From NCBI GenBank assembly GCA_024103275.1, contig JAGFIV010000104.1, positions 3,779-67,778 of the forward strand: a stretch of DNA of 64,000 bases, in the 5' to 3' direction. The translations under genes and the position numbers were made by a program. The notes under the pieces were generated by a model. It was given only the letters and a program-made list of their open reading frames with translations. It did not search any database and was not told the DNA's origin. Positions 1,524 through 35,949 of this stretch are shown here, piece by piece (position 1 is the stretch's first letter; every line of letters starts with the position of its first letter). Source of the DNA: Flavobacteriales bacterium (GTDB lineage Bacteria; Bacteroidota; Bacteroidia; Flavobacteriales_F; PHOS-HE28).

Positions 1524-1617
1524 TTCGATGGAGTGAAAGTAGCAATATCACCCGACCCGATGGGGGAAAAGGCAACTAAACACACCCGTGCCTGTTGCCA
1601 TTCACCTGCCATGCGTT

Positions 1618-1790
1618 TCAACCCGGAATATGCCGTAGGATTTCTACTACGGCCGAAATCGCTGCGGCAGCAAGCGTTTCACTGGCGTTCCTTTCGTCAG
1701 AATGGCATAAGCCATTCCTCCTCGACGAAAGCCTTGCTGCCATTGCGCTTTCGACCCTTGCAACGAACCCTACCGCATAATCCGGGTTCA
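1618..1790. repeat. Extended imperfect palindrome: outer 26-bp arms (1618-1643 / 1765-1790, 21/26 complementary), inner ~27-bp arms (1654-1680 / 1713-1739), perfect central hairpin GAATGG-n6-CCATTC (~1692-1709)
   Basis: Read directly: tcaacccggaatatgccgtaggattt vs reverse complement of gaaccctaccgcataatccgggttca. Produces the mirrored peptide NPEYAVGF/NPDYAVGF in opposite-strand track ORFs 1416-1979(+) and 1618-2139(-). Confidence 0.55.
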
Positions 1791-2287
1791 ACACTTCGGC
1801 GGTTCGTTGATCAGGGGGATCCGGGGCCGGGGAAACCCCTCCGCCTGCACCTTGTTTCCACGGGGACATACCTGTCGCGGCAACCGGAATTTCTCGTCCC
1901 TTCCGCCAATGCCCCGGTGCTTGCCCGCAGCCACCGCATGGGGAACCCCGGGCGCAGGAAAACTTCCCATGGGGGATGATCGTGGCACAGTTGGTCATGG
2001 GTTCACAGGAAAATTTCGTTGCCAAAAGACCCAGGCCGGGATATGTGATGATGTTGGCATTCTGACTTCCGGCAGCCGGAAACGGGAGCCTGGATCGCGC
2101 CCGGGATATCAGGCACGCGATTTCGGAACAAGACCCCATTCACCATGGGCACGGCGATGCAAAGCTCCTTGCCTTCAAGAGGATAGCCAAGAACCCCGGC
2201 AACGAAGGCACGGCCACACGGAGTTGGCCCGGACCGGTCCCGTGCATCGGCAGATCCCGCTTTGGGCCCGCAATCTCCCCACCCGCC

Positions 2288-2295
2288 TATATTTG
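2288..2295 (+). promoter_or_regulatory. Bacteroidetes-type -7 promoter element TATATTTG (TAnnTTTG consensus) upstream of ppiD
   Basis: Exact TAnnTTTG match 24 nt upstream of ATG 2319. Confidence 0.4.
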
Positions 2296-2318
2296 CCACC
2301 CTTTTAAGAATCAAGTAG

Positions 2319-4412
2319 ATGGCAGTTATCGGCAAGATCCGCGAGCGGGGCACCCTGCTGGGGATCATTGTGGGCGGCGCACTGGCGCTGTTCGTGGTGG
2401 GCGATTTCATCGGCAACCGCTCCGGTGCCCGCGACTACAATGTGGGGAGCATCGCGGGGAATGAGATCAGCATGCAACAGTTCTCCAGCATGGTGGACCA
2501 GCAGCTGGACCTGTACCGGCAAAACGGCACCACGGTGGACAACCAATTGCAGGAACAGGTGCGCAACGGGGTATGGAACGACCTGCTGCGCCAGTACACC
2601 TTGGGCGAGCAGGCCGAAAAGGCCGGCTTCGGCAACACGATCAGCCGTGAGGAATACGACGATATCCGGTTCGGGAACAACATCCTGCCCGACTTCCGGA
2701 ACAATGATGCTTTCAAGGACCCGGCCACCGGGCAGGTGAGCAAGGAGCGGCTGCAGCAGTATTTCAAGTACGTGCAGGAAAACAACCTCGCGCTCCTGGA
2801 CATGCAGCGCAAGACGTTCGTTCCCCAGCGCATCCAGGCCAAATACAACGACTTGCTGAAGAAAAGCTGCTTCGTGAACAGTGCGCAATTGCGGGATGAT
2901 TGGGCCGCGAAGAACACGAAGGCCGAGTTCCAATTCGTTGCCCAGCGCATGGATGCCCAGGCGGACAGCCTCTTCCCGGTAGGCGAGACCGAGCTGCGCC
3001 GGTACTACGATGCGCACAAGAACGACCGCAAGTACCGCCAGCAGGCCTCGCGCAGCTTTGCCTACGTGCGGTTCACGGCCGTGCCGTCCCAGGAGGACAT
3101 CGACAACGCCCGCGAGGACATGCTTGGATTGAAGGCGGACTTCGAGGCGGCCACCACGCGCGCCGCCGATAGCGCCCTGGTGGCCTCGGCCTCCGATAGC
3201 CGTTCGGCGGTGCCCACCGCCTATCAGGAAGGCACGGCCGACCACCTCAACGACTCGTTGATCACCCACGCCGAAGTGGGCACCGTGGTGGGGCCCTTCC
3301 GTGAAGGCAATTCCTGGAAGATCGTCAAGGTGGTGGAACTGGCCGACGTGGAGGAGGCCCGGGTGCGCCACATCCTGCTCACCAGTTCCGGCTCCGGTGC
3401 CGAGGATGCCAAGGTGAAGGCCCGCGCGGACAGCATCCTCAACGTGGTGAAGCGGGACCGCAGCAAATTCGAGTCGCTGGTGCAGAAATTCTCGGATGAC
3501 CCGGGCAGCAAGAACACCGGCGGGGTGTATGAGTGGTTCGACCGCCAGCGCATGGTGCCCGAGTTCACCAAGGCCAGCTTCGACGAAAAGGTGGGCGCCA
3601 TCACCGAGGTGAAGACGACCTATGGCTACCACATCGTGGAAGTGCTGGGCCAGCGCACCCGCAAGGAACGCCGCGTACTGACCATCGACCGGAAGATCGC
3701 GCCCGTACAGGCCATGAAGGTGATGTGGAAGATCGCCAACGAGTTCTCGCTCAACCACCCCGACAGCGCGTCGTTCCGCAAGGCGGCCGAGGATTCCGGC
3801 TATGTGTACACGCCGGTGGAGGACATGCGCCCGGAGCAACGCTATGTGCCCGGCCTGCAGGAAGCCGACGAGGTGGTGCGCTGGGTGAACCATGCCAAGG
3901 CGGATGCCAAGAGCAGCGAACCCTTGGTGAGCGGTGACAGTTACGTGGTATGCACCTTGCTGCGCATACGGGAAGAAGGCGTGCCCAAGCTGATGGACGT
4001 GCGTGAAAAGTTCACGGCGGAGTTGCGCAAGGAAATGAAGGCGGAGGCCTTGGTGAACAAGATGTCTGGCAAGACCGACCTCCAGGCATTGGCCACGGAA
4101 CTGAACGCCACGGTCCAGCAGTCGGGCGATTTCGCGTTCAGTGCCAACTCCCTGCCAGGAGGCTTCAGCGATGCCACGGCCATCGGCAAGATCTTCGGCA
4201 TGGCGGACGGCACCACCAGCGCACCCTTGAAGGGCGACATGGCGGTGTATGTGGTGAGCATGGCGAAGCTTACTGCGGCCGGGGAAATGCCGCAAGGCGC
4301 CGAGGACCCGAAGGTCCTCACCGACCGGTTCCGCAACCGGGCGCCGGGCCAGGCGTTCAATGCGTTGAAGGAAGCCGCCGGGGTGAAGGACAACCGCTCG
4401 CAGTACTACTGA
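2319..4412 (+). CDS. ppiD: Periplasmic chaperone / peptidyl-prolyl cis-trans isomerase PpiD-like (N-terminal TM anchor, SurA-N-like domain, parvulin PpiC domain)
   Basis: 697 aa. N-terminal TM helix LLGIIVGGALALFVV. Parvulin motif region VRHILLTS...FSDDPGSKNTGGVYEWF...GYHIVEVLGQR. Confidence 0.85.
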   Translation: MAVIGKIRERGTLLGIIVGGALALFVVGDFIGNRSGARDYNVGSIAGNEISMQQFSSMVDQQLDLYRQNGTTVDNQLQEQVRNGVWNDLLRQYTLGEQAEKAGFGNTISREEYDDIRFGNNILPDFRNNDAFKDPATGQVSKERLQQYFKYVQENNLALLDMQRKTFVPQRIQAKYNDLLKKSCFVNSAQLRDDWAAKNTKAEFQFVAQRMDAQADSLFPVGETELRRYYDAHKNDRKYRQQASRSFAYVRFTAVPSQEDIDNAREDMLGLKADFEAATTRAADSALVASASDSRSAVPTAYQEGTADHLNDSLITHAEVGTVVGPFREGNSWKIVKVVELADVEEARVRHILLTSSGSGAEDAKVKARADSILNVVKRDRSKFESLVQKFSDDPGSKNTGGVYEWFDRQRMVPEFTKASFDEKVGAITEVKTTYGYHIVEVLGQRTRKERRVLTIDRKIAPVQAMKVMWKIANEFSLNHPDSASFRKAAEDSGYVYTPVEDMRPEQRYVPGLQEADEVVRWVNHAKADAKSSEPLVSGDSYVVCTLLRIREEGVPKLMDVREKFTAELRKEMKAEALVNKMSGKTDLQALATELNATVQQSGDFAFSANSLPGGFSDATAIGKIFGMADGTTSAPLKGDMAVYVVSMAKLTAAGEMPQGAEDPKVLTDRFRNRAPGQAFNALKEAAGVKDNRSQYY

Positions 4413-4434
4413 TCGGAGCTGGCAACGGCCATTC

Positions 4435-4462
4435 GGAAAGGCTGCCCGCGGGCAGCCTTTCC
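4435..4462. terminator. Bidirectional intrinsic terminator hairpin between convergent ppiD and rodA
   Basis: Perfect 12-bp stem ggaaaggctgcc-cgcg-ggcagcctttcc, followed by gcTTTCaT on + strand. Confidence 0.55.
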
Positions 4463-4496
4463 GCTTTCATGCCCCCGACCCGCCGGCCCGGGCGGC

Positions 4497-5816
4497 TCAA
4501 CGGAGGTGTTCCAGCCGTTCGGCATCCAACCGGACCAGGATGGCCAGCAGCACGGTGAAGCCGATGAGCGAACTGCCGCCGTAACTGAAGAAAGGCAACG
4601 GGATGCCGATCACCGGGGCCAGGCCGATGGCCATGCCCACGTTGATCATCAGGTGCAGGAAGAAGATGCTGGCCACGCAGTAGGCATAGATGCGGGTGAA
4701 GCGTGATCGCTGCCGGTCGCTGATCTGGATGCAACGCAAGATCAGCCCGCCGAAGAGGAGCACCACCGCGGTGGATCCCAGGAAGCCCCACTCCTCGCCC
4801 ACGGTACAGAAGATGAAGTCCGTGCTTTGCATGGGCACGTATTTGTATTTGGTGAACGTGCCCTTGAGGAAGCCCTTGCCCGTGAAACCGCCGCTGCCGA
4901 TGGCGGTCTTGCTTTGCTCCACGTTGTAGCCGTAGCCGCGCGGATCGTGCTCCAAGCCCAGCAGCACGCGGATCCGGGTCTGTTGGTGCGCGGGCATGTG
5001 GTCGATCAGCTGGTCCACGCTGGCGATGAACGCCGATGAGCCCAGCAGGCCGATCAGCAGGTAGGCGTAGATCCGTTTGCGGCGGTGCTTGAAGACGAAC
5101 TTGTTCACGAAGAGGAAGCCCAGGAGGGTGAACACGGCCAGCATCCCGATCAGGAAGTATTGGCCGTGGAATTGGATGTCCGTGAACGGCAGGGTGTAGA
5201 TGCTTTCCTTCATGATCAGGGAGAGCACCACGAGGATGGCCGCCATGATGGCGATGAGCAGGATGTTGCCGGACAGTCCTTCCCGGTACAGCACCAGCAC
5301 GAACGCGCCGCTGACCAGGGCGGTGCCGGTATCGGGTTGCAGCATGATCAGGCCCACCGGCAGCAGGATGAGGATGGCGGAGACCACCCTGGCCCGCGTT
5401 TCCTTCAAGGTCTTCAGGCCGCTGAGGTACTTGGACAGGGCCAGCGCGGTGGCGAACTTGCTGAACTCGGCCGGTTGGATGCCGAAGCCGCCCACTCCGA
5501 ACCAGGCCTTGGCCCCGTTCACCTCGCGGCCGATCAGCAGCACCAGCACCAGCAGGAACAGCACCACCAAGTAGGTGGGGTAGGCCAGGTTGCGGATGAA
5601 TTCCCCCCGCACCAGCAGCATGCCGGCCCCGATCAACAGGGAGACCACGATCCATACGCTCTGGGCACCATACTCGCGGGCGCGGTCGAACAGGTTGGCG
5701 TGGTCGGGGTCGTATGCCGCACTGTAGATGTTCGCCCAGCCCATGGCCATCAGCAGCAGGTACATCACCACCAGGGGCCAGTCCAAATTGCGTATGATGC
5801 TGTCCCGTTGGCTCAT
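4497..5816 (-). CDS. rodA: Rod shape-determining protein RodA (SEDS family peptidoglycan glycosyltransferase)
   Basis: Track ORF 4497-6494 is a fusion; the real protein begins at the internal MSQRDSIIRNLDWPLVVMYLLL (residue 227 -> ATG 5816). Multi-TM FtsW/RodA sequence ending ...PLPFFSYGGSSLIGFTVLLAILVRLDAER. ATGA overlap with mrdA stop. Confidence 0.9.
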   Translation of the reverse strand: MSQRDSIIRNLDWPLVVMYLLLMAMGWANIYSAAYDPDHANLFDRAREYGAQSVWIVVSLLIGAGMLLVRGEFIRNLAYPTYLVVLFLLVLVLLIGREVNGAKAWFGVGGFGIQPAEFSKFATALALSKYLSGLKTLKETRARVVSAILILLPVGLIMLQPDTGTALVSGAFVLVLYREGLSGNILLIAIMAAILVVLSLIMKESIYTLPFTDIQFHGQYFLIGMLAVFTLLGFLFVNKFVFKHRRKRIYAYLLIGLLGSSAFIASVDQLIDHMPAHQQTRIRVLLGLEHDPRGYGYNVEQSKTAIGSGGFTGKGFLKGTFTKYKYVPMQSTDFIFCTVGEEWGFLGSTAVVLLFGGLILRCIQISDRQRSRFTRIYAYCVASIFFLHLMINVGMAIGLAPVIGIPLPFFSYGGSSLIGFTVLLAILVRLDAERLEHLR

Positions 5817-7657
5817 GGGCGGCGCCTTTTGGCGGGCTTCACATAGTTCTTCTCCTCGGCGATCAGGTTGGCGTCCAGCATGCGCTGCATCAGCTCGGGC
5901 CGGGTGATGGTATCGGTGAGGTACTGCTCCATGCACAAGCTGGCGATGGGTGCCGCCCACGTGCCCCCGAAGCCGGAATTCTCCACGTACACGGCGATCG
6001 CGACCTTGGGGTCCTCCATGGGGGCAAAGGCCACGAATACCGCATGGTCCTTGCCATGCGGGTTTTCGGCCGTGCCGGTCTTGCCGCACACGGTGATGCC
6101 CGGTATCCGTGCCGCCCGCGCCGTGCCGCCCGGCTCGTTCACCACCCGGCGCATGCCTTCCACCAAGGGCGGGAACCACTGGTCGTCCACCAGGGTGTGG
6201 TGCCGCTGCACCTGCGTGTTCAGGCTGTCCGGGTGCCCGATGGCGCGCACCAGGTGCGGGTCGTAGTAGTAGCCCCGGTTGGCGAAGATGGCCGCCAGGT
6301 TGGCCATTTGCACCGGCGACACCAGCACCTCCCCTTGGCCGATGCTCAGCGAATAAATGGTGCTGAAGGACCAGGCCTTCTCCCCGTAGATCCGGTTGTA
6401 GAACGCCACCCCGGGGATGCTCCCCCCCTTCACCGACGGCAGGTCCAGCCGGGGTTGGTGCCCCAGTCCGAAGCTTTCCATGGCCACCTTCCACTTGGCC
6501 AGCCCAAGCGCCGCGTCCTCAAAGCGGTTCTTCGACGCCCCCTGCTCGATCTCGCGCTTGAACACCTGGTAGAAATAGGGGTTGCACGAGAACTGCACGG
6601 CCTGCTCCACATTGGCCGCCGTGGGGTGGTTGTGGCATCCCACCAGGGCCTTGTTGCAGGCGAAGCTGGTGTTAAGCGTGATCACGCCCTCCTGCAGCGC
6701 GATGGCGGCCTGGGCCAATTTGAAGATGGAACCCGGCGGATACTGGGCCTGCAGGGCCCGGTCGAACAAGGGGGTGAGCGGATCTTGCTGAAGGACGCGG
6801 TAGTTGGTATTGCGCACACGGCCCACCAGCAGCTCCGGGTCGTACGTGGGGGAGCTCACCAAGGCCAGCACCTCCCCGGTGCGCGGGTCCAAGGCCACGA
6901 TGCTGCCCTTTTTGTTGCGCATCAGCCGCTCGCCCAGTTCCTGCATCTTCAGGTCGATGCTGGTATACAGGTTCTTGCCCGCATGGGCCAAGGTGTCGTA
7001 GCGGCCTTCCTGGAAAGGGCCCTGGACGTTGTTGTGCACGTCCACCACCACGTACTTCACGCCCCGCTTGCCGCGCAGCGCCGTTTCATAATAGCTCTCC
7101 AAGCCGCCCACACCGATCACGTCGCCCGGCTTGTAGTACGGGTCCTGTTCCACCTTGCGGGCCCCCACCTCGCTGATGTAGCCCAGCATGTGGGCACCCA
7201 CATGGGGCGGATAGGTGCGCAGGGTCCGGCTCTGGGCATAGAACCCTGGGTATTTGTACAGGTGGACCGAAATGGCGGCATACTGTTCGGCGGTGACCTG
7301 CTTCTCGAACTCGCTGGGCTTCCACACGGAATAATCGCGGGCCTTGCGCAGGCGCTCCCTCACTTGGTCCATGGGTACATGGAGCAGTTCGGATAGTCCC
7401 AGGGTATCCAGGTTCTTCACCTCGCGGGGCACCACCATGATGTCGTATACCGGGGTGTTGGCCACCAGCAATTCGCCGTGCCGGTCCAGGATCAGGCCCC
7501 TGGACGGGTACACGGTGATCTTGCGCTCGCTGATGTCCGCCGCGCGTGCCGCCCAGCCCTGGTCCACCACCTGGATCCAGAAAAGGCGCATGATGAACAC
7601 GGCGCAGATGAACACCACCGCCGCGATCAGGACGTACTTGCGATCGTTGAAATTCAT
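5813..7657 (-). CDS. mrdA: Penicillin-binding protein 2 (peptidoglycan D,D-transpeptidase MrdA)
   Basis: 614 aa. N-terminal TM helix, PBP dimerisation and transpeptidase domains (…SIFKLAQAAIALQEG…). Lies in the mreBCD-mrdA-rodA operon. Confidence 0.9.
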   Translation of the reverse strand: MNFNDRKYVLIAAVVFICAVFIMRLFWIQVVDQGWAARAADISERKITVYPSRGLILDRHGELLVANTPVYDIMVVPREVKNLDTLGLSELLHVPMDQVRERLRKARDYSVWKPSEFEKQVTAEQYAAISVHLYKYPGFYAQSRTLRTYPPHVGAHMLGYISEVGARKVEQDPYYKPGDVIGVGGLESYYETALRGKRGVKYVVVDVHNNVQGPFQEGRYDTLAHAGKNLYTSIDLKMQELGERLMRNKKGSIVALDPRTGEVLALVSSPTYDPELLVGRVRNTNYRVLQQDPLTPLFDRALQAQYPPGSIFKLAQAAIALQEGVITLNTSFACNKALVGCHNHPTAANVEQAVQFSCNPYFYQVFKREIEQGASKNRFEDAALGLAKWKVAMESFGLGHQPRLDLPSVKGGSIPGVAFYNRIYGEKAWSFSTIYSLSIGQGEVLVSPVQMANLAAIFANRGYYYDPHLVRAIGHPDSLNTQVQRHHTLVDDQWFPPLVEGMRRVVNEPGGTARAARIPGITVCGKTGTAENPHGKDHAVFVAFAPMEDPKVAIAVYVENSGFGGTWAAPIASLCMEQYLTDTITRPELMQRMLDANLIAEEKNYVKPAKRRRP

Positions 7658-8175
7658 CGTGGCCGCACCCCGCCCGAGGTAAGCGCTTGGGCCAGCAGGC
7701 AGAGCAACAAGGTAGCAACGGCGCTCATCAGGGCACGGAGCAACGTGGAAAGGAAATCGTCAAACCGGTACACCTCAACGAAGAAAAGCCACAGATGGTG
7801 CACGAGGATGAGCACGCCCGCGAAAGTCATGAACCAGGTGAGCCCCATGTCGCGCACGTTGGGCCGCTTGATGATGTCGTAGCCATCGCGCGGGGCCAGG
7901 ATGCGCAGCATGAACAGGCGCGCATAGGCCATCAACGTGCAGGCACCCGCATGCATGCCGGGCGTGCTGCTGAAGAAATCCATGGTAAGGCCCAGCACGA
8001 AGCCGATCACCAAGGTAGCCCACGGCGGCGTGTCGAAGGGCAAGGCGATGATGAACAGGACGTAGAGGTAGGGCACCACCCAGCCATGGGCCAGGTCCAG
8101 GTGATCCAGTACCAGGGCCTGTAGCAGCACCAGCAGGAGGAAACCGAGGATATGGTTGCGTACCAGGGTGATCAT
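7654..8175 (-). CDS. mreD: Rod shape-determining protein MreD
   Basis: 173 aa polytopic membrane protein between mreC and mrdA. 4-bp overlaps on both sides. Confidence 0.75.
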   Translation of the reverse strand: MITLVRNHILGFLLLVLLQALVLDHLDLAHGWVVPYLYVLFIIALPFDTPPWATLVIGFVLGLTMDFFSSTPGMHAGACTLMAYARLFMLRILAPRDGYDIIKRPNVRDMGLTWFMTFAGVLILVHHLWLFFVEVYRFDDFLSTLLRALMSAVATLLLCLLAQALTSGGVRPR

Positions 8176-8999
8176 GGGCGGCCGACCTTTGCCTCCAGGG
8201 TGTCGCGCTCGGCCTTGAACAGGTCGACCACCACGTGTACGTAGGCGGTGCGGGTGAGGTCCTCGCTGAGCTTCAACCGGATGTCGTGGAAATTGCTGCC
8301 GGGGTCCTCGTTCACCTCGGTGACGGTGCCCACGGTGATCCCCGGGGGGAAGATGCCATCGTTGCCGCGGGTGACCACCGTATCGCCGGGCGCCACCGGC
8401 ACGTGGTTGGCCACATCGGTCATGGACGCGGTGCGCGGGTCGTCGGTATCCCAGCTCAACAGGCCGAAATGGCCGGTGCGCTTCAATTGTACGCTGATCC
8501 GGTACTCATCGCTGAGCACGCTGGTGACCAGTGCAAAGCGGGGACTGACGTCGCGCACGATGCCGACCACGCCGCCCATGCCGATCACCCCCATGTCCGG
8601 CCGGATGCCGGCCAGCGCCCCGCTTCCCAAGGTGATGTAGTTGCGCTCCTTGTGTGTGGTGCTGTTGATCACTTGTGCGGTGACGAAGGTGTACCGCGCC
8701 ACCCCGGCGGTGTCGCGGGCCGTTTGCACGCTGTCGGTCCCGTCCAGTGAACGGAAGCGCCGGTCGCGCTCCCGCGCCAGCGCCACGGCCAGGTCGCGGT
8801 TCACTTTCCGCAGGTCCGCATACTCGGTCACCTCCTGGCGCCAGGCATAGATCTGCCCGACCAGCGCGTTGCTGCTGCTGATGGCCTGGGCGCGCTGGTG
8901 CATGTTGCCGTTCACGAGCAGGAACAGGGACAGTGCCATCAGGCCCAGGAAGAGCAGGTTGTTGCGCTGGCGGAACAGGAAGCGGAAGAGGTCGCGCAT
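8172..8999 (-). CDS. mreC: Rod shape-determining protein MreC
   Basis: 275 aa. N-terminal TM helix, coiled-coil, C-terminal beta domains (…GITVGTVTEV…). Position between mreB and mreD. Confidence 0.85.
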   Translation of the reverse strand: MRDLFRFLFRQRNNLLFLGLMALSLFLLVNGNMHQRAQAISSSNALVGQIYAWRQEVTEYADLRKVNRDLAVALARERDRRFRSLDGTDSVQTARDTAGVARYTFVTAQVINSTTHKERNYITLGSGALAGIRPDMGVIGMGGVVGIVRDVSPRFALVTSVLSDEYRISVQLKRTGHFGLLSWDTDDPRTASMTDVANHVPVAPGDTVVTRGNDGIFPPGITVGTVTEVNEDPGSNFHDIRLKLSEDLTRTAYVHVVVDLFKAERDTLEAKVGRP

Positions 9000-9051
9000 G
9001 CTGGGATCTTGTGGCGGGCCCCGGCCCGGCGGCCGTGCCCTGCATGGGCCT

Positions 9052-10080
9052 CTATTCCCGCATGAGGAACTGGAAGCGGTCGATGTTGCGCAGTGCGATG
9101 CCGGTGCCCCGGGCCACGGCGCGCAGGGGATCCTCGCTCACATGCACGGGCAGCTTGGTCTTGATGCTGATCCGTTTGTCCAGCCCCCGCAGCAGGGCAC
9201 CTCCTCCGGCCAGGTATATACCTGTGCGGTAGATGTCTGCACTGAGCTCGGGCGGCGTGGCCTCCAAGGCGCTGAGGATGGCCTCCTCGATCTTGCTGAT
9301 GGACTTGTCCAGCGCCTGGGCGATCTCGGAGTAGGTGACGGTGATCTCCTTGGGGATGCCCGTCATCAGGTCGCGGCCGCGCACGGCATAGTCCGCCGGG
9401 GGGTCTTCCAGCTCCACCATGGCGCTGCCCACCTCGATCTTGATCTGTTCGGCGGTGCGCTCACCCACCAGGATGTTGTGCTGGCGGCGCATGTATTCCT
9501 CGATATCGTTCGTGAACTCGTCACCTGCCACGCGGATGTTCTTGTCGCACACGATGCCGCCCAGGGCGATCACCGCGATCTCGGAGGTGCCCCCGCCGAT
9601 GTCGATGATCATGTTGCCCATGGGCTCCTCCACGTCGATGCCGATGCCGATGGCCGCGGCCATGGGCTCGTGGATCAGGTAGACTTCCTTGGCCCCGGCA
9701 TGTTCGGCGCTGTCTTTCACCGCCCTTTTCTCCACCTCGGTGATGCCGCTGGGGATGCAGATCACCATGCGGATATTGGGCGTGAAGAGTTGGCGGCCCG
9801 GGTTGATCATCTTGATCATGCCCTTGATCATCTCCTCGGCGGCCTGGAAGTCGGCGATCACCCCGTCCTTCAGCGGCCGCACGGTCTTGATGTTTTCGTG
9901 GGTCTTGCCATGCATTTGTTGGGCCTGCCGGCCGATGGCGATCACCTTGCCGGTGGTGCGGTCCTTGGCCACGATGCTGGGCTCGTCCACCACCACCTTG
10001 TCATTGTGGATGATCAAGGTGTTGGCGGTGCCCAGATCGATGGCGATCTCCTGGGTGAAAAAGCTATTGAACCAGCCCAT
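9052..10080 (-). CDS. mreB: Rod shape-determining protein MreB (actin homologue)
   Basis: 342 aa, MGWFNSFFTQEIAIDLGTANTLI..., canonical MreB sequence. Confidence 0.95.
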   Translation of the reverse strand: MGWFNSFFTQEIAIDLGTANTLIIHNDKVVVDEPSIVAKDRTTGKVIAIGRQAQQMHGKTHENIKTVRPLKDGVIADFQAAEEMIKGMIKMINPGRQLFTPNIRMVICIPSGITEVEKRAVKDSAEHAGAKEVYLIHEPMAAAIGIGIDVEEPMGNMIIDIGGGTSEIAVIALGGIVCDKNIRVAGDEFTNDIEEYMRRQHNILVGERTAEQIKIEVGSAMVELEDPPADYAVRGRDLMTGIPKEITVTYSEIAQALDKSISKIEEAILSALEATPPELSADIYRTGIYLAGGGALLRGLDKRISIKTKLPVHVSEDPLRAVARGTGIALRNIDRFQFLMRE

Positions 10081-24626: not shown

Positions 24627-26357
24627 TTGCCCCCGGAAATGATCCGCCGGGTCGGAAGCACCACTCTCCAGTGCCTCCTGCTCATCGCGTTATTCCAGGG
24701 GTACCGTCCACTCTCATCGTTGCACGGCCCCGGAAGACAACCTGGTCACCCCGTGGTGACCGCACACGCGATGGTAGTGAGCGCCCATCCCGTGGCCACG
24801 GCCGTGGGCGTGGATGTATTGCGCGATGGGGGCAATGCGATCGATGCCGCCGTGGCGGTCCATTGGGCCCTGGCTGTCACCTCCCCCTGGGCCGGCAATG
24901 TGGGTGGCGGCGGATTTGCGGTGGTACGGCTGCACGGTGGGCAGGCCATGGCCTTGGACTTCCGTGAAACCGCTCCCGGCAAGGCCTCCTCCGACATGTT
25001 CCTGGGCGCCGACGGCCGGCCACTGCATGAAGTGAGCACCCATGGTGCCTTGGCCAGCGGGGTTCCGGGCAGCGTGGCCGGGTTGTTTGCCCTACGGGAC
25101 AGCCTGGGGCGCCTGCCGATGGAGCGCCTGATCCAACCGGCGATCGACCTGGCGCGCAACGGATGCGTCCTGTCCCCCTTGGAGGCACACGAGATCAATG
25201 TGTGCATGCCCATGCTGCAGAAGTACAGCACACGCCCCAGCGCATTCACCGCCCGTGCAAAGTGGGAGGCGGGTGATACCCTGTTCCAGCCCGACCTGGC
25301 CCGCACGCTGGAGCGGATCCGCGATCGGGGACGTGACGGCTTTTACCGGGGCGAAACGGCGCAGGCCATTGTCCACGAAATGGAGCGGGGCGGAGGGATC
25401 ATCACCACGGAGGACCTGGCCGGGTACGAGGCGGTGTGGAGGCCGGTGGTACGGGGGCAATACCGCGACATCGGGGTCATCAGCATGCCGCCCCCGTCAA
25501 GCGGTGGCATGATGCTCCTGCAGATGCTGCAAGGCATGGAGGCCATGGACGTGGGTGCGGCAGGCTGGCAATCCCCCGCCACGGTGCATCGGATGGTCGA
25601 AGTGGAACGGCGGGCGTTTGCCGACCGTTCCTCGTTCTATGGAGATCCGGCATTCACCCACATCCCCGTGGAGGGCCTGCTGGACAGCCTGTACAACCTG
25701 GGGCGCATGGTCGACTTCAATCCGCTGCACGCCACCTCTAGCGCGACGGTGCGCCCCGGGCTGCCGCCCACTGAGCATGAGCAGACCACGCACTTCTCCA
25801 TCGTGGACGGGGAAGGGAACGCGGTTTCCTGCACCACCACCCTCAACGGCATGTATGGCAACGGCGTGGTGGTGGGCGGGGCGGGCTTCGTGCTGAACAA
25901 TGAGATGGACGATTTCAGTTCGGCACCCGGCGTGCCGAACAGCTACGGCCTCACCGGAGGGGAGGCCAATGCGATCGCCCCGGGCAAGCGCATGCTCTCG
26001 TCCATGGCGCCCACGATCCTCGAACGGGACGGAAAACTGCTGATGGTCCTGGGCTCACCTGGCGGAAGCGCGATCCCGACCTCGATCTTCCAGGTGATCC
26101 TGAACGTAGTGGACCATGGCATGGACATGCAGCAGGCGGTGTCGGCCCCCCGTTTCCACCATCAATGGCTGCCGGATACCATCCAGGTTGAATATGACGC
26201 GATCGCGGCGCAGGACAGCTTGAAGCTGGTGAACATGGGACACCGGTTCAAAAGCCGCCGGGCGATCGGCCGGGTGGATGCCATCCTCAGGCTCCCTGAT
26301 GGCCGTCTGGAAGGTGGCGCGGACCCGCGCGGTGAGGATTCTGCAGGTGGTTATTGA
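24627..26357 (+). CDS. ggt: Gamma-glutamyltranspeptidase
   Basis: 576 aa. Catalytic-Thr region …TTHFSIVDGEGNAVSCTTTLNGMYGNG…. Alternative start at 24639 (MIRRVG…). Confidence 0.95.
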   Translation: MPPEMIRRVGSTTLQCLLLIALFQGYRPLSSLHGPGRQPGHPVVTAHAMVVSAHPVATAVGVDVLRDGGNAIDAAVAVHWALAVTSPWAGNVGGGGFAVVRLHGGQAMALDFRETAPGKASSDMFLGADGRPLHEVSTHGALASGVPGSVAGLFALRDSLGRLPMERLIQPAIDLARNGCVLSPLEAHEINVCMPMLQKYSTRPSAFTARAKWEAGDTLFQPDLARTLERIRDRGRDGFYRGETAQAIVHEMERGGGIITTEDLAGYEAVWRPVVRGQYRDIGVISMPPPSSGGMMLLQMLQGMEAMDVGAAGWQSPATVHRMVEVERRAFADRSSFYGDPAFTHIPVEGLLDSLYNLGRMVDFNPLHATSSATVRPGLPPTEHEQTTHFSIVDGEGNAVSCTTTLNGMYGNGVVVGGAGFVLNNEMDDFSSAPGVPNSYGLTGGEANAIAPGKRMLSSMAPTILERDGKLLMVLGSPGGSAIPTSIFQVILNVVDHGMDMQQAVSAPRFHHQWLPDTIQVEYDAIAAQDSLKLVNMGHRFKSRRAIGRVDAILRLPDGRLEGGADPRGEDSAGGY

Positions 26358-29300
26358 TCACCGTCCGGGGTGAAGGCAACTTTGCGGCCCCGCCGCCGTG
26401 CAGCCAGGCGCCATCCGATCAGCCCCGCCACGCCGGCCAAGGCGACCGCATACCAGATCCATCGCGGTACCCCGGCCCTGCCCAGTTCCACGGGACCTGT
26501 TTCGCCGATCAACACCAGGCCCGCCCAATAGTATGGATGGACCAGGTCATCCTGGGCCGTGGACAGGAAATCCAGCTTGGCCCGGCGAAGGGCTTCGTGT
26601 TTCGGCATACCCTCGCCGAGCAGGTCAAGGAAGCGGGTAATGATCTCCGCCGAGACCTTTTCATCAATGTTCCACAGGGCTACCACCATGCTCGGGCAAC
26701 CGGCGTAGGCGAAGCTGGCACCCAGCGAGCGGATGCCCTCACCGGCCTCCTCCTTGCCGGTCCCGCTCTCACAGGCCGTGAGCACGGCCAGCTGGGCACG
26801 CAGGTCCAGTTCATAGATCTCGTAGGCATGGAGGTAACCGTCGTCATCCGGCTCCAGACCTGCACCACCCTTGCTAAGCACCAGGCGCGAGTACATCGGG
26901 TGGGAAGGGTCCATTTCGGCATGGGTGCCCAGGTATAAGATGCCATAGTCTCCGGCTTCCTGCCGGAAGCGGCCTTCACTGGCGGCTTCCCCGGTGAGCA
27001 CCTGTGCGGAGGGTGAATGCCCCAGGACCTGTGCGGTCCGCACGGCGAACGGTTGCCGGACGAACCGGAAAAAGTGCTTGTCCAGTTCCGAGGTATCGGC
27101 CACGGCCTTGCGGTAGTCCGCCTTCACCTGGTCGCTGAAGCCGGGCGCCAAGGCCAGCACCCCCTTGCTACGTTCCCGGGCCATGCCGGCGAACTGCACC
27201 GCCGTGGCGGCGCTGATCAGGTACGCGATGGTATGCCGCTGAATGAGCAGGTGGTCGGTATAGTCCTGAACTCCTGGGACCGTCAGGAGCAATTCGAAGT
27301 TCACGGTGCGCAGCTCGCCATCCGGGGCCACCAACAATTCCTTGGCCGTGATCCGGTGGGCCACGGGTTCGAAGACCTGATGGTACAACGCGTAGGCGTG
27401 ATCGGTGAACTCCTTCACCTGTCGTTGGGCGATGGCTTGGTTGAAGCCACGAACCCCGGCCCCCAAGGTCCGTGCATCGATCCGGGTGATGCTTGCGGTC
27501 CCTTGGCCGAGCACCAAGGCATAGAGGTGGTCCCGGGTGCGGGCATACATCAACAGCTGGCGATCCGGGGCCAGCAACCGCTCGCGCACCTCGGCAAGCG
27601 TGGGCACGTGCTCCCCGTAGCGCAGGTTGAAGTAGCGCGGATACCGCTTTTCGAGCAGCTGCAGGAGTTCCCGGTATTTCGCTTCGCGCACCCCCCTGTC
27701 CGCCATGCTGGCATGGTCTTCCTGCTCCGCCTTCAAGCTGGTGCGCAATTCCTGCTCCAGGGCGATCAGGCTGTCCGGCACACCATTGAAGTTCACGCCG
27801 GTGAAGGCGTTGAGCCGGTTCTTCAGCAGCACGGACCGGTCGGCCTCGGCCAAGGTGAAGAAGCGTTGCACCGCCTGTTCCGACCCCGACCGTTCATAAT
27901 CCGCGTACGCGCTTTCCAGGGCGAGGCTGAACAGGCGCTGTTGCGCGGCCATCAACAGGAGCTTGGAGCCGTCATCCCCCACGGCAGCATGGCTGCGCTG
28001 CAGGTAGCGGACGGCCAGGTCGATGTCGTCGTTCCATCGTTCGCCGCCGCTCTTTGGCGCCATGGCCTGCCCCGCGCGGACCTTCCAGTAAAGGGCATCG
28101 GGCAGTAGGTGCGGGTCGGGGAACAGCACGGGAAGGCCCGATGAGCGCACGGCATCCACCCGGTCCTTCAGCAAGGCCAAGGCCGAATCGGCGCGGGCTG
28201 CGGCTTCCGGCAAGCGTCCCAGGGCAAATGCCTGTTCGGCCAACAGGACGTCCAGCCTGGCCACGCGATAGTTCGTCCGTCCGTGCACGTTCACCTCGAT
28301 GGTACGTGCCTGCTGAAGGTCCTTGATGGCTTGTGCGTGATCCCCGGCGGCGGCATGGAGCCTTGCCTTGGCGGCAAAGGCCTTCACCAGTTCCACGCTG
28401 GTGGTGGCGTAGTCCGTGGTGCGGCTGGATGCAATGCCCAAGGTGAAGAGCGAGTCCGCCCGGCCTGGATGTCCCTGGTCCATGGCCACTTCCCCGAGCT
28501 TGCGGGCTGCCCTGGCATATTCGGCGCTGCGTACGCCATACTTGGCCTCACAAGCGACCAGGTAGGAGCTCACCAAGGCGGCCGCCCGGTCAAGATCACC
28601 GGCGGCCATGGCCACATCGCCTTGGCGCTCGCGCACAGCCAGGAGCTGGGGATCGTCGGGTGCCAGCACGGACGCGCGATCGTGCCATACCTGCTCCAGC
28701 AAGGCACTCGCTTGGCCCAGGTCACCCAGCTCAAAGTACACGGTGGCGAGGTTGAGGTAGCTGCGCGACCGGGAAAGGATGACCTCATCGCGCGTGGACG
28801 GGTCGGTGGTGTTGGCGATGATCCGGTCGCAGAGGTGGATGGACCGGTAGTAGAAGGACTTGCTGCGGGCCTGATCGCCACCATCCTGCCAGAGCACACC
28901 GAGGTTGCCCAAGGTGGACACCCGGCGGTTCATGGCCGCCTCGCCCGTGTCGTTCTCCAAGGCCTCCAAGGCCCGGTTGTATTGTTTCTCCGCCTCGCGC
29001 AGGCGGCCCAAGTGCCAAAGTGCCGCACCAACGGCATTGTACGATTCGGCCCATTGGATGGCGGGAACGGAATCGGCCTTGGCATACTCGGCCAAGGCCA
29101 TTTGCGCATAGCGGGCCGAGCTGCGGTGGTCGCCGATCACGCTGTAGTCGAAGGCCAGGTACTGGCATGCTTTGCCGCGTTGGACAGGTGGAACGGCGGG
29201 ATCACCCAGCGCCACCGCCACGGCGCTGGAATCGGTGCGCACATAGTCTTTGGTGCGTCCGGCCTCGTAATAGATCCAGCTCAGGTCGAACAGGGCCTCG

Positions 29301-29602
29301 AGCAAATACTTCGACTTGCCCCGCCGACGCACATGATCCACCAAGGATTCCGCCGCCGCGGCACCATCGCCGCCGTGGAGATTGCGCATGGCACGTCCGT
29401 ACTTGTACACGTAGCGGTGCAGCGAGTCCTGCCAAGGGGTGCCTTGCGCCTGCTCCACCTGAAGTTCAATGGCCTTGGCCAGGTCCGCGTAGCGCTCCTT
29501 CTTGTAGAGGTCCCTGATCAGCGAGTCACGCCATGCGAGGTCCTGTGCCTGCACCGCGGTTGCCCAGACGACCAACAAGGGCAGCAGCAGGCGGCGCATC
29601 AC
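26351..29602 (-). CDS. Periplasmic TPR-repeat / CHAT-domain (caspase-like) protease, 1083 aa, signal peptide + C-terminal TM anchor
   Basis: N-terminal MMRRLLLPLLVVWATAVQAQ signal peptide. ~850 aa of TPR-like repeats. C-terminal CHAT domain with candidate His (…LYLGTHAEMD…) and Cys (…VLTACESGTG…) dyad. Then TM helix WIWYAVALAGVAGLIGW and basic tail RRRGRK. 4-bp overlap with the upstream anti-sigma gene. Confidence 0.85.
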   Translation of the reverse strand: MMRRLLLPLLVVWATAVQAQDLAWRDSLIRDLYKKERYADLAKAIELQVEQAQGTPWQDSLHRYVYKYGRAMRNLHGGDGAAAAESLVDHVRRRGKSKYLLEALFDLSWIYYEAGRTKDYVRTDSSAVAVALGDPAVPPVQRGKACQYLAFDYSVIGDHRSSARYAQMALAEYAKADSVPAIQWAESYNAVGAALWHLGRLREAEKQYNRALEALENDTGEAAMNRRVSTLGNLGVLWQDGGDQARSKSFYYRSIHLCDRIIANTTDPSTRDEVILSRSRSYLNLATVYFELGDLGQASALLEQVWHDRASVLAPDDPQLLAVRERQGDVAMAAGDLDRAAALVSSYLVACEAKYGVRSAEYARAARKLGEVAMDQGHPGRADSLFTLGIASSRTTDYATTSVELVKAFAAKARLHAAAGDHAQAIKDLQQARTIEVNVHGRTNYRVARLDVLLAEQAFALGRLPEAAARADSALALLKDRVDAVRSSGLPVLFPDPHLLPDALYWKVRAGQAMAPKSGGERWNDDIDLAVRYLQRSHAAVGDDGSKLLLMAAQQRLFSLALESAYADYERSGSEQAVQRFFTLAEADRSVLLKNRLNAFTGVNFNGVPDSLIALEQELRTSLKAEQEDHASMADRGVREAKYRELLQLLEKRYPRYFNLRYGEHVPTLAEVRERLLAPDRQLLMYARTRDHLYALVLGQGTASITRIDARTLGAGVRGFNQAIAQRQVKEFTDHAYALYHQVFEPVAHRITAKELLVAPDGELRTVNFELLLTVPGVQDYTDHLLIQRHTIAYLISAATAVQFAGMARERSKGVLALAPGFSDQVKADYRKAVADTSELDKHFFRFVRQPFAVRTAQVLGHSPSAQVLTGEAASEGRFRQEAGDYGILYLGTHAEMDPSHPMYSRLVLSKGGAGLEPDDDGYLHAYEIYELDLRAQLAVLTACESGTGKEEAGEGIRSLGASFAYAGCPSMVVALWNIDEKVSAEIITRFLDLLGEGMPKHEALRRAKLDFLSTAQDDLVHPYYWAGLVLIGETGPVELGRAGVPRWIWYAVALAGVAGLIGWRLAARRRGRKVAFTPDGDQ

Positions 29603-30330
29603 GGGTTGTATTGGCGCTCGATCTCCCGGGCGCGTTCACCATAGACCGGATCATCGGTCATCCCCAGGTGCCGCATGGCCTCGCGGTTTCCGCTTCGCAG
29701 ATAGGCAAGGTAGAGGAACCAGCGGGCCTTGGCCTGGAAGGCGGAAGCCGTGTTGGAAGCCACCCGATCGAACCGGGGGGCGGCATCCGCGGCCCTTCCC
29801 TGGGCCAACAGGGCACTGGCGATGTAGAACTGCAACGTGTCATTGTCCGGGTCCGTTTGCAGCAAAGGTTCCCACTTGGCCACGGCCTCGGCATAGTCCT
29901 CCAGTTTATAGGCCACCATGGCATCCTGGAATTCGGGGTCCTTCACCACGCTCATGGGCACGGGCAGGCCGGGATCAGGGTGGTAGTACTGTGCAAACAC
30001 CCGCTCATGGGCCGATGGCCGGACCGCCCACCAGATCCCCGCCCCCAGGAGCAGGGCCAGCATGGCCGCATACTTGAGCAGCGGTGCCCAACGGCTTCCT
30101 GCCTCGGTTGAGCCCGCGCCGTGCCCCGCCCGAAGGGTCTTCAGGGTTCGCTCCACACCGGCCATTTCCACGGCCCGGATGTTTTCGCGCCCCAATTCCA
30201 GCTCATTGCGCAATTCCGCATCCTCGGCCAGGCGTTGCTCGAACCGGCGCCGCTGATCGGCCTCCATGGTCCCGAGCACATAAGCCTCCAGTTGCTCAAA
30301 GGCATCCTGCCGCAACGGTCCCTGGCTCAT
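29599..30330 (-). CDS. Anti-sigma factor-like single-pass membrane protein with periplasmic TPR-like domain
   Basis: Start MSQGPLRQDAFEQLEAYVLGTMEA (residue 56 of track ORF). Cytoplasmic helix-rich N-terminus (no HxxxCxxC). TM LLKYAAMLALLLGAGIWWAV. ~150-aa periplasmic TPR-like region. 4-bp overlaps with ECF sigma upstream and CHAT downstream. Confidence 0.7.
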   Translation of the reverse strand: MSQGPLRQDAFEQLEAYVLGTMEADQRRRFEQRLAEDAELRNELELGRENIRAVEMAGVERTLKTLRAGHGAGSTEAGSRWAPLLKYAAMLALLLGAGIWWAVRPSAHERVFAQYYHPDPGLPVPMSVVKDPEFQDAMVAYKLEDYAEAVAKWEPLLQTDPDNDTLQFYIASALLAQGRAADAAPRFDRVASNTASAFQAKARWFLYLAYLRSGNREAMRHLGMTDDPVYGERAREIERQYNP

Positions 30331-30908
30331 GCCCCCTGGTGGTTTTCCCCGCTGATGGCCTTTCGGCAGGCACGCAGTTTCATCATGCAGCGGTATTTGA
30401 TCGTACGTATGCTCTCTTCCTCCACGCCCAAGGTCCCCGCGATCACGGACAGGCTTTTGCGCTCGAAGTAAAACAGGTCCAGCACTTGCCGGCACTTGGT
30501 GTCCAGCATGCCGTATACCTCGCGCAAGCGCACGATGCGGTCCTCAACGTTGCCCGCTTCCGGAGCATTTCCGGCCAGTTCTATGTGGTTATCGCCCAAC
30601 GTGTTCATCTCTCGTTTGGATGGGGACCGCAGGATGTCCAGCCACTTGTTCTTGGCCACCCGGAACAAAAACCCGCCTGCATCGTGGCCCTCGAACCCGC
30701 CTTCCTTCACTTTGAGCCACAGCACCAGTACCGCCTCCTGGAACACATCCTCCGAGTCGGCCTTCCGCCCATTGTTCGCCAGCACATATTGGCGAACGGC
30801 CGGAAAGTGTTTCCTGTAGAGCATGCGGATGGCTTTCGGGTCGTTCGCCAACAATCCGGCCTTCCAATCGGCTTGGATCTCCGGGTCGATGAATATCGTC
30901 TTTGCCAC
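30327..30908 (-). CDS. RNA polymerase ECF-type sigma-70 factor
   Basis: 193 aa. Region 2 (…DVFQEAVLVLW…) and region 4 HTH (…LSVIAGTLGVEEESIRTIKYRCMMKLR…). Confidence 0.9.
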   Translation of the reverse strand: MAKTIFIDPEIQADWKAGLLANDPKAIRMLYRKHFPAVRQYVLANNGRKADSEDVFQEAVLVLWLKVKEGGFEGHDAGGFLFRVAKNKWLDILRSPSKREMNTLGDNHIELAGNAPEAGNVEDRIVRLREVYGMLDTKCRQVLDLFYFERKSLSVIAGTLGVEEESIRTIKYRCMMKLRACRKAISGENHQGA

Positions 30909-31098
30909 GACGAATGCTATCGGGGCAACGATAATACGACGAATCGGTCAACCAGTTCAAGTGCATGTCGTCACGAGGGCATCCGCGTTCCTGCTCCTTC
31001 CCATCGGGCCAAGTCGGAAATGTGAACAACACACCGGTTTTTCATCCGGCCCTGTTCACAATCGGTTACCTCGCCCGATAGATGGAAAACGCCCATTC

Positions 31099-31539
31099 AT
31101 GTCGGACCAGAACACCGCCGCAACACCTCCCGCCCGCCACGAGATCAGGATCATTGCACTGATGGAACCCGATCAGGCCACCCCCAATGGTACCCTTGCC
31201 ACGGGCTTCCTGATAGGATCCGCCGACAGCGCCACCTTGTCCCGCACCTTGCAGGCCATTTGCGACGGGACCAGTACCGCCCCTCCCTCAGCAAGGCGGG
31301 TGCGCATAACGGTGCATGAAGAGGGGGTGATGGAGGAGGAGCGGGCGCTGAGCCCGCGCGAGCAGCAGGTCCTTTGCGGCCTGGTGCGGGGCCTCAGCTA
31401 CAAGATGATCGCCGACGAACTGGACATTGGTTTCGAGACGGTGCGTAGCCACATCAAGGGAATCTATCTGAAGCTGAACGTGAACAACAACACCGCTGCG
31501 GTGGCCAAGGCGATCCATGCGGGCCTTGCGGCCGCCTGA
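31099..31539 (+). CDS. Small LuxR/GerE-family HTH regulator with short (~85 aa) non-receiver N-terminal domain
   Basis: Start MSDQNTAATPP (residue 93 of track ORF). C-terminal …LSPREQQVLCGLVRGLSYKMIADELDIGFETVRSHIKGIYLKLNV…. Confidence 0.75.
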   Translation: MSDQNTAATPPARHEIRIIALMEPDQATPNGTLATGFLIGSADSATLSRTLQAICDGTSTAPPSARRVRITVHEEGVMEEERALSPREQQVLCGLVRGLSYKMIADELDIGFETVRSHIKGIYLKLNVNNNTAAVAKAIHAGLAAA

Positions 31540-35876: not shown

Positions 35877-35949
35877 GGTGCCTTAGCTCAGCTGGTAGAG
35901 CAATGGACTGAAAATCCATGTGTCCCCAGTTCGATTCTGGGAGGCACCA
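35877..35949 (+). tRNA. tRNA-Phe (anticodon GAA); CCA not encoded
   Basis: Manual cloverleaf: acceptor GGTGCCT/AGGCACC; D-arm GCTC-AGCTGGTA-GAGC; anticodon arm ATGGA-CTGAAAA-TCCAT (GAA at 34-36); T-arm CCCAG-TTCGATT-CTGGG; discriminator A. Confidence 0.9.

Follow-up and report, generated by a model that had tools for sequence, protein, structure and literature searches.

A conserved sigma factor, anti-sigma-like and TPR-CHAT gene cassette of Bacteroidota as a candidate proteolytic switch

How does a gene for a caspase-like protein come to share an operon with the genes for a sigma factor and for the membrane protein that would hold that sigma factor inactive, and what would the caspase-like protein do there? 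We take up this question for a locus at positions 26351-31539 of a 64,000-nt stretch of the Flavobacteriales bacterium contig JAGFIV010000104.1 (this whole stretch is called the window below, and coordinates are window positions unless a related locus is named). The interval consists of three consecutive minus-strand open reading frames and one divergent plus-strand open reading frame. A sequence-only reading of this DNA had assigned the three to a sigma factor of the extracytoplasmic function (ECF) type, an anti-sigma-like protein that crosses the membrane once and a tetratricopeptide repeat (TPR) protein with a CHAT protease domain, and the fourth to a small LuxR-type regulator; all four genes are indeed where that reading placed them. 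The account that we favor is of a three-component Bacteroidota ECF switch whose CHAT protease would act in trans, in the manner of a site-1 protease, on a linker of the anti-sigma-like protein. We give this account, with its putative cleavage, an even chance of being right.

If the module works in this way, the anti-sigma factor would sequester the sigma factor in the resting state. The CHAT protease would be activated by a signal in the periplasm, a protein or a peptide, which the TPR superhelix of the CHAT protein, the TPR domain of the anti-sigma factor or both would read; the active protease would then cut the juxtamembrane linker of the anti-sigma factor in trans as a site-1 protease. The trimmed anti-sigma factor would be removed by an RseP-type site-2 protease together with cytoplasmic proteases, and the freed sigma factor would transcribe its own operon, the GerE gene and a number of genes for secreted proteins. 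We favor site-1-type cleavage in trans because the genes are almost universally adjacent and coupled (in about 70 of 79 loci), because the catalytic dyad appears to be under selection, because protease and linker have a matching geometry close to the membrane, because the linker carries an invariant motif, predicted to be unstructured, that is different in modules with divergent CHAT proteins, and because of a Rosetta-stone protein, DdvA of Myxococcus, in which one chain unites a periplasmic TPR-CHAT part with an anti-sigma domain. The module is, in effect, the DdvA design split into two polypeptides.

The three genes as a conserved cassette

The ECF-type sigma factor gene (30327..30908, minus strand) has a GTG start and encodes 193 amino acids (aa). 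For the single-pass anti-sigma-like protein, the mechanically called open reading frame begins at 30495; an ATG at 30330 overlaps the sigma stop codon as ATGA, and we therefore take the gene to be 29599..30330 (minus strand, 243 aa). The TPR-CHAT gene (26351..29602, minus strand, 1083 aa) starts with a GTG at 29602 that overlaps the anti-sigma stop codon as GTGA, and an ATG one codon after it is an alternative start that would leave a 1-nt overlap, TGATG. The ATGA and GTGA junctions confirm the overlapping, coupled arrangement that had been claimed for the three genes, and both junctions recur in other genomes: the sigma and anti-sigma genes share 4 nt at 61 of 71 orthologous loci, and at 62 of 67 the anti-sigma/CHAT junction has a value from -4 to +8 nt.

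To ask how general the arrangement is, we scanned one genome per species for CHAT relatives; this gave 201 relatives, from which 79 loci were kept. Sigma and anti-sigma homologues stand immediately upstream of the CHAT gene in about 70 of these 79, down to 31% CHAT identity, so that the synteny of the three genes extends to most of the related loci. The loci that bear the cassette belong mostly to uncultured Flavobacteriales and their flanking genes vary: the gamma-glutamyltranspeptidase gene next to the cassette in the window recurs in one locus only, and the GldE-like neighbor in two only. Because the sigma, anti-sigma and CHAT genes are kept together while the flanks change, we regard them as a conserved functional cassette. 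One related locus, L052 (10-9210), separates the genes in an instructive way. It has a sigma/anti-sigma pair at 10-1355, after which the other strand encodes three secreted proteins and a GerE protein; immediately ahead of a second anti-sigma gene (5246-5983) and a CHAT gene (5980-9210), which have no sigma gene with them, stands an ECF-type promoter (5091-5116). The sigma gene is 4 kb away from this second pair, and the anti-sigma and CHAT genes are thus linked even when the sigma gene is displaced. In three other loci the CHAT gene is duplicated in tandem, in the order sigma, anti-sigma, CHAT, CHAT (L014 2680-9213; L022 ~2660-9216; L035 ~1343-7889).

Similar gene sets are also found on plasmids of cultured Cytophagales. 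Plasmid unnamed15 of Chondrinema litorale encodes a sigma factor, a 252-aa protein and a 1084-aa CHAT-TPR protein (WP_284688909/910/911), with two 4-nt overlaps, and the 252-aa protein carries the linker motif DPGLPVLMS, where the window protein has DPGLPVPMS (discussed below). On three other Chondrinema plasmids and on pAT1 of Aureibacter tunicatorum, genes for a sigma factor and for a transmembrane (TM)/TPR protein of ~240-250 aa lie beside, or within 3 kb of, the CHAT-TPR gene; in these modules the gene orientations vary and the juxtamembrane motifs differ from DPGLPVPMS. That Cytophagales modules with divergent CHAT proteins also have a different linker fits cognate recognition between the two proteins. 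One cultured C. litorale strain carries five plasmid-borne TPR-CHAT genes in all (L083, L084, L088, L089 and L090); four of the five have a sigma gene and a ~250-aa TM/TPR gene within 3 kb, with orientations that are co-directional, divergent or convergent, some adjoin insertion sequence elements, and the DPGLPV.MS linker is kept in only one. The CHAT-TPR homologues of Shinella (Alphaproteobacteria) have no sigma gene nearby, so the association with a sigma factor is a feature of Bacteroidota and not general to CHAT-TPR proteins.

At its downstream end the cassette meets the gamma-glutamyltranspeptidase gene (24627-26357, plus strand), which is convergent with the CHAT gene (26351-29602, minus strand). 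The two 3' ends overlap by 7 nt (26351-26357), which leaves no space for a terminator between them. An Rfam search has no match within the operon locus; its sole match in the window is a tRNA gene at 35877-35949 (plus strand).

The CHAT protein and a candidate cleavage site

The identity of the sigma factor is the simplest to settle. It contains only the Pfam domains Sigma70_r2 (residues 30-95) and Sigma70_r4 (residues 135-180), it passes the NCBIfam model TIGR02937 for sigma70-ECF proteins (65.9 bits, cut-off 42.9), and its best relatives in the PDB are the ECF sigma factors SigL (8e-11), SigE and CnrH; the assignment made in the sequence-only reading is borne out on all three counts.

Is the large protein a protease, and on which side of the membrane would it act? 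Pfam recognizes CHAT with E = 1e-50 (residues 736-1034) and, in the repeat part, the families TPR_12, TPR_1, TPR_2 and TPR_10. An AlphaFold2 model built on 115 homologues reaches a predicted local distance difference test (pLDDT) score of 88.3 and a predicted template modeling (pTM) score of 0.82, and in it residues 3-675 are entirely helical, with 32 helices and no strands. The first 20 residues (MMRRLLLPLLVVWATAVQAQ; 29543..29602, minus strand) are a predicted signal peptide, with a hydrophobic 15-mer at 5-19 followed by AQA-like residues, and residues 21-675 (27578..29542, minus strand) form the TPR superhelix of ~650 aa. The earlier figure of ~850 aa of TPRs is corrected here, since the helical part of the model ends at residue 675. 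The caspase-like alpha/beta CHAT domain follows (residues ~681-1034, of which 681-1032 are the modeled alpha/beta part; 26501..27562, minus strand), with the catalytic residues His894 (26921-26923, minus strand, in a GTHAE context) and Cys944 (26771-26773, minus strand, in a TACE context). The chain ends in a TM anchor (residues 1047-1070; 26393..26464, minus strand), which is a helix in the model, contains the hydrophobic 15-mer 1049-1063 and is followed by the basic tail RRRGRK. The 15-mers at 5-19 and 1049-1063 are the two most hydrophobic of the protein, and the C-terminal hydrophobic segment is present in all 115 homologues. The signal peptide, the C-terminal anchor and the length of 1083 aa had all been read correctly from the DNA, and from them we infer that the protein is Sec-exported, with its whole TPR-CHAT part in the periplasm and held at the inner membrane by the C-terminal helix.

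His894 and Cys944 are invariant in 115 of 115 homologues. These sequences extend down to 43% identity, and the residues around the two positions are strictly invariant as well, which argues that catalysis is under selection and leaves the CHAT domain, claimed earlier from a single sequence, as a genuine one with an intact dyad. The fold of the model matches Csx29, separase and DdvA, with Csx29 as the best structural match; the top Foldseek matches include human separase (E ~1e-12) and DdvA (8RW5, E 2e-11; 8ROT, E 7.5e-11). Both features of the TPR-CHAT class to which separase, Csx29 and DdvA belong, a TPR superhelix and a caspase-like alpha/beta fold joined to it, are present. Sequence searches of the PDB with the protein and with a 115-sequence profile find TPR proteins only, and neither DdvA nor Csx29 nor separase, so that the relation is visible only at the level of the fold. 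By that fold and the invariant dyad, the protein would be a cysteine protease of the caspase/separase/Csx29-like kind, with predicted endopeptidase activity. The only internal segment of the model with low confidence is the loop 947-968 directly after Cys944 (26762-26701, minus strand; pLDDT <50), and in the modeled structure this loop may be regulatory or gate access of the substrate.

Which part of the anti-sigma-like protein could such a protease reach? This protein has a single hydrophobic segment, at residues 85-103 in a Kyte-Doolittle 19-mer scan, and its AlphaFold2 model (pLDDT 79.6) places helices at 8-19, 24-36 and 38-70, a TM helix at 82-103, a short helix at 107-115, a coil at 116-131 and a TPR domain at 132-241. 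The three helices at the N-terminus, modeled with moderate pLDDT, make up a cytoplasmic region (residues 8-70; 30121..30309, minus strand) that we presume to be the sigma-binding anti-sigma domain. After the TM helix (residues 82-103; 30022..30087, minus strand), which includes the Kyte-Doolittle segment, the periplasmic part ends in a TPR domain of three repeats (residues 132-241; 29608..29937, minus strand; Pfam TPR_16 and TPR_19, pLDDT >90). With one TM segment and a three-repeat TPR domain, the protein has the single-pass topology and the TPR-like periplasmic domain that had been ascribed to it, and it shows the class I anti-sigma feature of a single TM helix with an extracytoplasmic C-terminal domain. 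Foldseek relates the TPR domain to peptide-binding TPR modules (the LpoP C-terminal domain, CTPR390 with an Hsp90 peptide, and YbgF), and with the model of the protein as query this domain alone was matched, with no match to an anti-sigma domain. The N-terminus gives faint family signals: a weak match to the NCBIfam model NF052375 'antisigma' (residues 14-116, E = 4e-7; 30 bits, where the cut-off is 100), weak zf-HC2 matches in 6 of 30 homologues and RskA_N in 1 of 30. The region has a conserved family consensus, FE.IE.Y.L..M...E...FE. Neither the window protein nor this consensus has His or Cys at the positions that correspond to the zinc-ligand motif of zinc-binding anti-sigma domains (HxxxCxxC or CHCC). 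Public annotation calls the protein 'hypothetical' or a 'tetratricopeptide repeat protein'; its sequence matches, at 100% identity, a 'hypothetical protein' encoded in a metagenome-assembled Flavobacteriales genome.

The candidate site lies in the coil between the membrane and the TPR domain. The periplasmic juxtamembrane motif DPGLPVPMS (residues 119-127; 29950..29976, minus strand) is a candidate for protease recognition or cleavage: in an alignment of 30 homologues D119-V124 and M126 are invariant and P125 and S127 nearly invariant, which makes the juxtamembrane coil the most conserved part of the protein, ahead of both the TPR domain and the N-terminus. Orthologues of 30-37% identity from Cryomorphaceae and Bacteroidia genomes keep the motif. 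The coil (116-131) has a pLDDT of ~60 and is flanked by well-predicted elements, and the linker is accordingly modeled as an unstructured segment; an invariant and unstructured motif is compatible with a site at which a protease binds or cuts. The geometry agrees as well. The spacer between the CHAT domain, which ends at ~1034, and its TM helix, which begins at 1047, is only ~12 residues long, and the motif begins 16 residues after the anti-sigma TM helix, so that CHAT domain and linker both lie near the inner membrane's outer surface.

A rival reading has the two proteins bind without one cutting the other. In such a scheme the TPR-CHAT protein would be a non-catalytic or self-processing co-sensor, comparable to RseB or a co-anti-sigma factor, that docks on the TPR domain or the linker of the anti-sigma factor and leaves it intact; by docking it would either relay the binding of a ligand or keep another site-1 protease away from the anti-sigma factor. 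A TPR superhelix of ~650 aa and an anti-sigma TPR domain of the peptide-binding type do suggest protein-protein docking, and in DdvA the bulky TPR-CHAT part sterically blocks RseP and the dyad was captured in a resting state (PMC11506125). A role without catalysis is hard to square, however, with a dyad and surroundings that stay strictly invariant over the 115 sequences, and with a dyad position in the fold that closely matches that of active Csx29 and separase. We consider a mere docking function quite improbable and continue with cleavage of the anti-sigma factor as the preferred account.

Promoter motif and predicted regulon

If cleavage frees the sigma factor, which genes would it transcribe? 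When the DNA upstream of the sigma genes is aligned, a common element emerges, yGTTCACATyc followed by cCGATr 15-16 nt after GTTCAC, that has the form of an ECF-type promoter (GTTCACAT-N-CCGAT) and precedes the sigma gene of almost every orthologous locus, low-GC ones included (the window itself has a G+C content of 60-68%). The pattern GTTCAC-N14-17-CGAT has exactly two copies in the 64-kb window, where 0.42 would be expected, and both lie in the 190-bp intergenic region between the sigma and GerE genes. One, GTTCACATTTCCGACTTGGCCCGAT (31003..31027, minus strand), is the predicted promoter of an ECF-dependent, autoregulated operon; the other (31054..31079, plus strand) is 20 nt upstream of the start codon of the GerE/LuxR gene. 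A position weight matrix scan of the window finds no further copy above background, and in the 79 related loci (996 kb) the motif has 180 instances against 2.65 in shuffled sequence. It is absent from the orthologous locus on Chondrinema plasmid 15, from which we take it to be specific to the Flavobacteriales/Cryomorphaceae clade. By analogy with the autoregulation of other ECF sigma factors, the motif is probably the promoter recognized by the sigma factor of the cassette.

The predicted regulon begins with the divergent gene. This small GerE/LuxR-type regulator (31099..31539, plus strand; 146 aa; Pfam GerE 6e-15) had been recognized before, but with a start at 30823; the start is the ATG at 31099. 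Its NCBIfam matches cover only the linker and helix-turn-helix part of NarL/FixJ-type regulators, and the protein therefore lacks a complete receiver domain. Since the gene is preceded by a presumed promoter of the sigma factor, it is probably a member of the regulon and more than a mere neighbor; small GerE genes stand behind the motif in 15 other loci. Other genes behind the motif encode secreted proteins. In 21 loci these are 'QLPRIVVQG' proteins, ~350-376 aa long and often present in several copies, whose N-terminus reads AQLPRIVVQGxGxPxVFT (an example is L007 3359-4489, minus strand) and which have no match in Pfam or NCBIfam. Elsewhere they are large secreted proteins with PPC, Ig-like and type IX secretion system (T9SS) sorting domains, ELWxxDGT-repeat proteins, an FGE-sulfatase-like protein and a PorV/PorQ-family protein. 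The last of these is encoded in a distant Bacteroidales locus of 34% identity (L063 5699-6844, plus strand), where the gene for this outer-membrane protein comes right after the CHAT gene and has the motif in front of it; judged by its family, the gene would add to the T9SS flavor of the predicted regulon.

A regulon of this kind raises the question of whether the protease is the input to the switch or its output. In the latter case the sigma and anti-sigma factors would answer another cue, and the TPR-CHAT protein would process or quality-control the secreted/T9SS regulon or other envelope proteins. It is easy to see the appeal of this idea: the predicted regulon in other loci is dominated by proteins that must cross the periplasm, among them T9SS C-terminal-domain cargo, ELWxxDGT-repeat proteins and the PorV/PorQ-family protein, and members of a regulon are commonly found downstream in ECF operons (PMC7826278). 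The tandem CHAT duplications stand behind a single pair of sigma and anti-sigma genes, and the orphan CHAT genes of L053 and L069 keep the promoter motif upstream and thus behave as regulon targets. The GTTCAC..CGAT motif is just upstream of these two genes (L053 2467-2492; L069 3792-3817), which may be under the trans control of a module elsewhere in their genomes. On the other hand, the CHAT and anti-sigma genes, almost universally adjacent and with overlapping start and stop codons, are bound together more tightly than the variable regulon genes are, and the DdvA fusion ties TPR-CHAT to anti-sigma function itself. The window and its closest relative, L004, keep the CHAT gene, yet the motif there precedes no secreted cargo, only GerE. 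The invariant motif of the anti-sigma linker would, in addition, be left without an explanation. We rank a purely downstream protease as the main rival, though on balance an unlikely one, and retain the view that the CHAT protein acts on the anti-sigma factor.

The sigma gene also has a conserved leader element, CGTATTATCG (30929..30938, minus strand), ~21 nt upstream of its start. In the related loci 46 of 53 instances of this element follow the sigma promoter motif at a distance of 42-77 nt, and none is found upstream of other regulon genes. A scan for sigma-70-type promoters reads the leader region as TTGAAC-18-TATTAT (30960-30931, minus strand). The element may be a basal second promoter (as its -10), an RNA element or an operator for GerE.

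Known systems and the meaning of the split form

The closest precedent is DdvS/DdvA of Myxococcus xanthus, an ECF sigma factor and a TM anti-sigma factor whose periplasmic domain is TPR-CHAT, for which CHAT-mediated site-1 cleavage and then RseP have been proposed (PMC11506125, PMC6061681). Removal of TPR-CHAT exposes the anti-sigma stump of DdvA to RseP, and DdvA controls a cyclic-oligonucleotide-based antiphage signaling system (CBASS) and a type III-B CRISPR system (PMC11506125). Fused DdvA-like proteins were found by the authors of that work only in Myxococcota and in one Comamonas (PMC6061681, PMC11506125). Whereas DdvA joins the anti-sigma domain and TPR-CHAT in one polypeptide, the window and ~70 orthologous loci have two genes whose products each have a membrane segment of their own, and the zinc site is absent from the window protein.

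Several points weigh against cleavage in trans as the function of the module. CHAT-mediated cleavage of DdvA is itself only a hypothesis, and mutants of the DdvA dyad have no phenotype without a known signal (PMC11506125). In our own case the anti-sigma assignment comes from position, topology, a predicted three-helix N-terminus and hidden Markov model matches below threshold; the link between the promoter motif and the sigma factor rests on the analogy with ECF autoregulation; and the CHAT paralogues in L053 and L069 have no adjacent sigma/anti-sigma pair.

The comparison also bears on a further reading. Because both characterized CHAT-sigma connections are defense systems (PMC11506125, PMC10028731), the module could be a regulator of anti-phage defense of the DdvS/DdvA or Craspase type, in which the periplasmic CHAT protein senses a phage protein and the sigma factor activates defense genes; the Chondrinema copies, on plasmids and near mobile-element genes, would agree with this. 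DdvS/DdvA is tied to a defense island, however, whereas here PADLOC has no match for the sigma, anti-sigma or CHAT genes (only the helix-turn-helix of GerE weakly matches CARF-HTH models) and no CRISPR-like array or repeats occur anywhere in the 64-kb window, as the sequence-only reading had said. The window neighbors of the cassette are housekeeping genes, for gamma-glutamyltranspeptidase and a GldE-like CNNM/CBS protein, and the regulon is predicted to be of non-defense type, with secreted/T9SS proteins and GerE and no known defense genes. A role in defense is, in our judgment, very improbable, and both it and the docking function are less likely than the protease being an output.

That earlier reading had also drawn an analogy to Craspase, and it did so with the facts right: in Craspase, Cas7-11 works with the TPR-CHAT protein Csx29, and the substrate that Csx29 cuts, Csx30, inhibits the ECF-like CASP-sigma (PMC10028731). 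Guided by RNA and bound to Cas7-11, Craspase works in the cytoplasm, whereas the CHAT protein of the window is periplasmic by its signal peptide and anchor, with no Cas protein and no array in the window, and the inhibitor here is a transmembrane anti-sigma factor in place of Csx30. With separase, the eukaryotic TPR/ARM-CHAT protease (MEROPS C50), the window protein shares the N-terminal helical repeats and the caspase-like fold at ~10-13% identity, while cellular context, substrates and regulation differ.

In canonical anti-sigma proteolysis, RseA of E. coli is cut by DegS and then RseP, and RsiW of B. subtilis by PrsW and then RasP. As in these systems, the window has a single-pass protein, here anti-sigma-like, and an ECF operon with predicted autoregulation, and periplasmic site-1 cleavage, intramembrane site-2 cleavage and cytoplasmic degradation are proposed. 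The difference is in the proposed site-1 enzyme, here a clan-CD caspase-like cysteine protease encoded in the operon, there a PDZ serine protease or a PrsW-type metalloprotease encoded elsewhere; unlike the E. coli RseA system, the window module has no RseB-like gene. Among ECF groups, the literature gave only ECF54 as one noted for CHAT neighbors: in this group of Actinobacteria, carboxypeptidase, subtilase or CHAT proteins are encoded near the sigma gene and proteolytic control has been suggested (PMC8999054, PMC7826278). A CHAT-domain protein near an ECF sigma gene is thus conserved in both cases, but ECF54 is actinobacterial and without an anti-sigma factor, whereas in the Bacteroidota module the anti-sigma-like protein is always present.

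How new, then, is the module? It had been put forward as undescribed. DdvS/DdvA is a precedent with the same proposed mechanism and the CHAT context of ECF54 is known, so this holds for the split Bacteroidota form; the literature was searched for a CHAT/ECF module in Bacteroidota and for a link between CHAT and T9SS, and nothing relevant was found. What is new is that the system is divided over three polypeptides, that it is spread among Bacteroidota and that its context is a non-defense one, and nothing established would be overturned by it. To our knowledge, bacterial CHAT proteases are very numerous and substrates are known for only a few, namely Csx29, SAVED-CHAT and HetF; we likewise know of DdvA as the only anti-sigma-linked CHAT protein that has been studied, with its signal and cleavage event unproven. 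The split system offers a clean pair of protease and substrate, a candidate site in DPGLPVPMS and a predicted promoter for a reporter, and Chondrinema litorale WSW3-B12 is a cultured host that carries the module, so the hypothesis of a caspase-like site-1 protease is directly testable.

In its full form, the proposal is of a widespread and hitherto unrecognized class of Bacteroidota ECF switches in which an operon-encoded, membrane-tethered TPR-CHAT protein serves as a dedicated site-1 protease in trans, cuts DPGLPVPMS when a protein or peptide cue reaches it in the periplasm and, by way of the sigma factor and a relay of the GerE type, controls surface proteins secreted by the T9SS; we put this tentatively, at somewhat less than an even chance. 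If it is true, these proteins would add a fourth protease class to the regulated proteolysis of anti-sigma factors, and the module would open a first way into a conserved regulon of uncharacterized T9SS-secreted proteins in those Flavobacteriales that abound in metagenomes from wastewater and freshwater.

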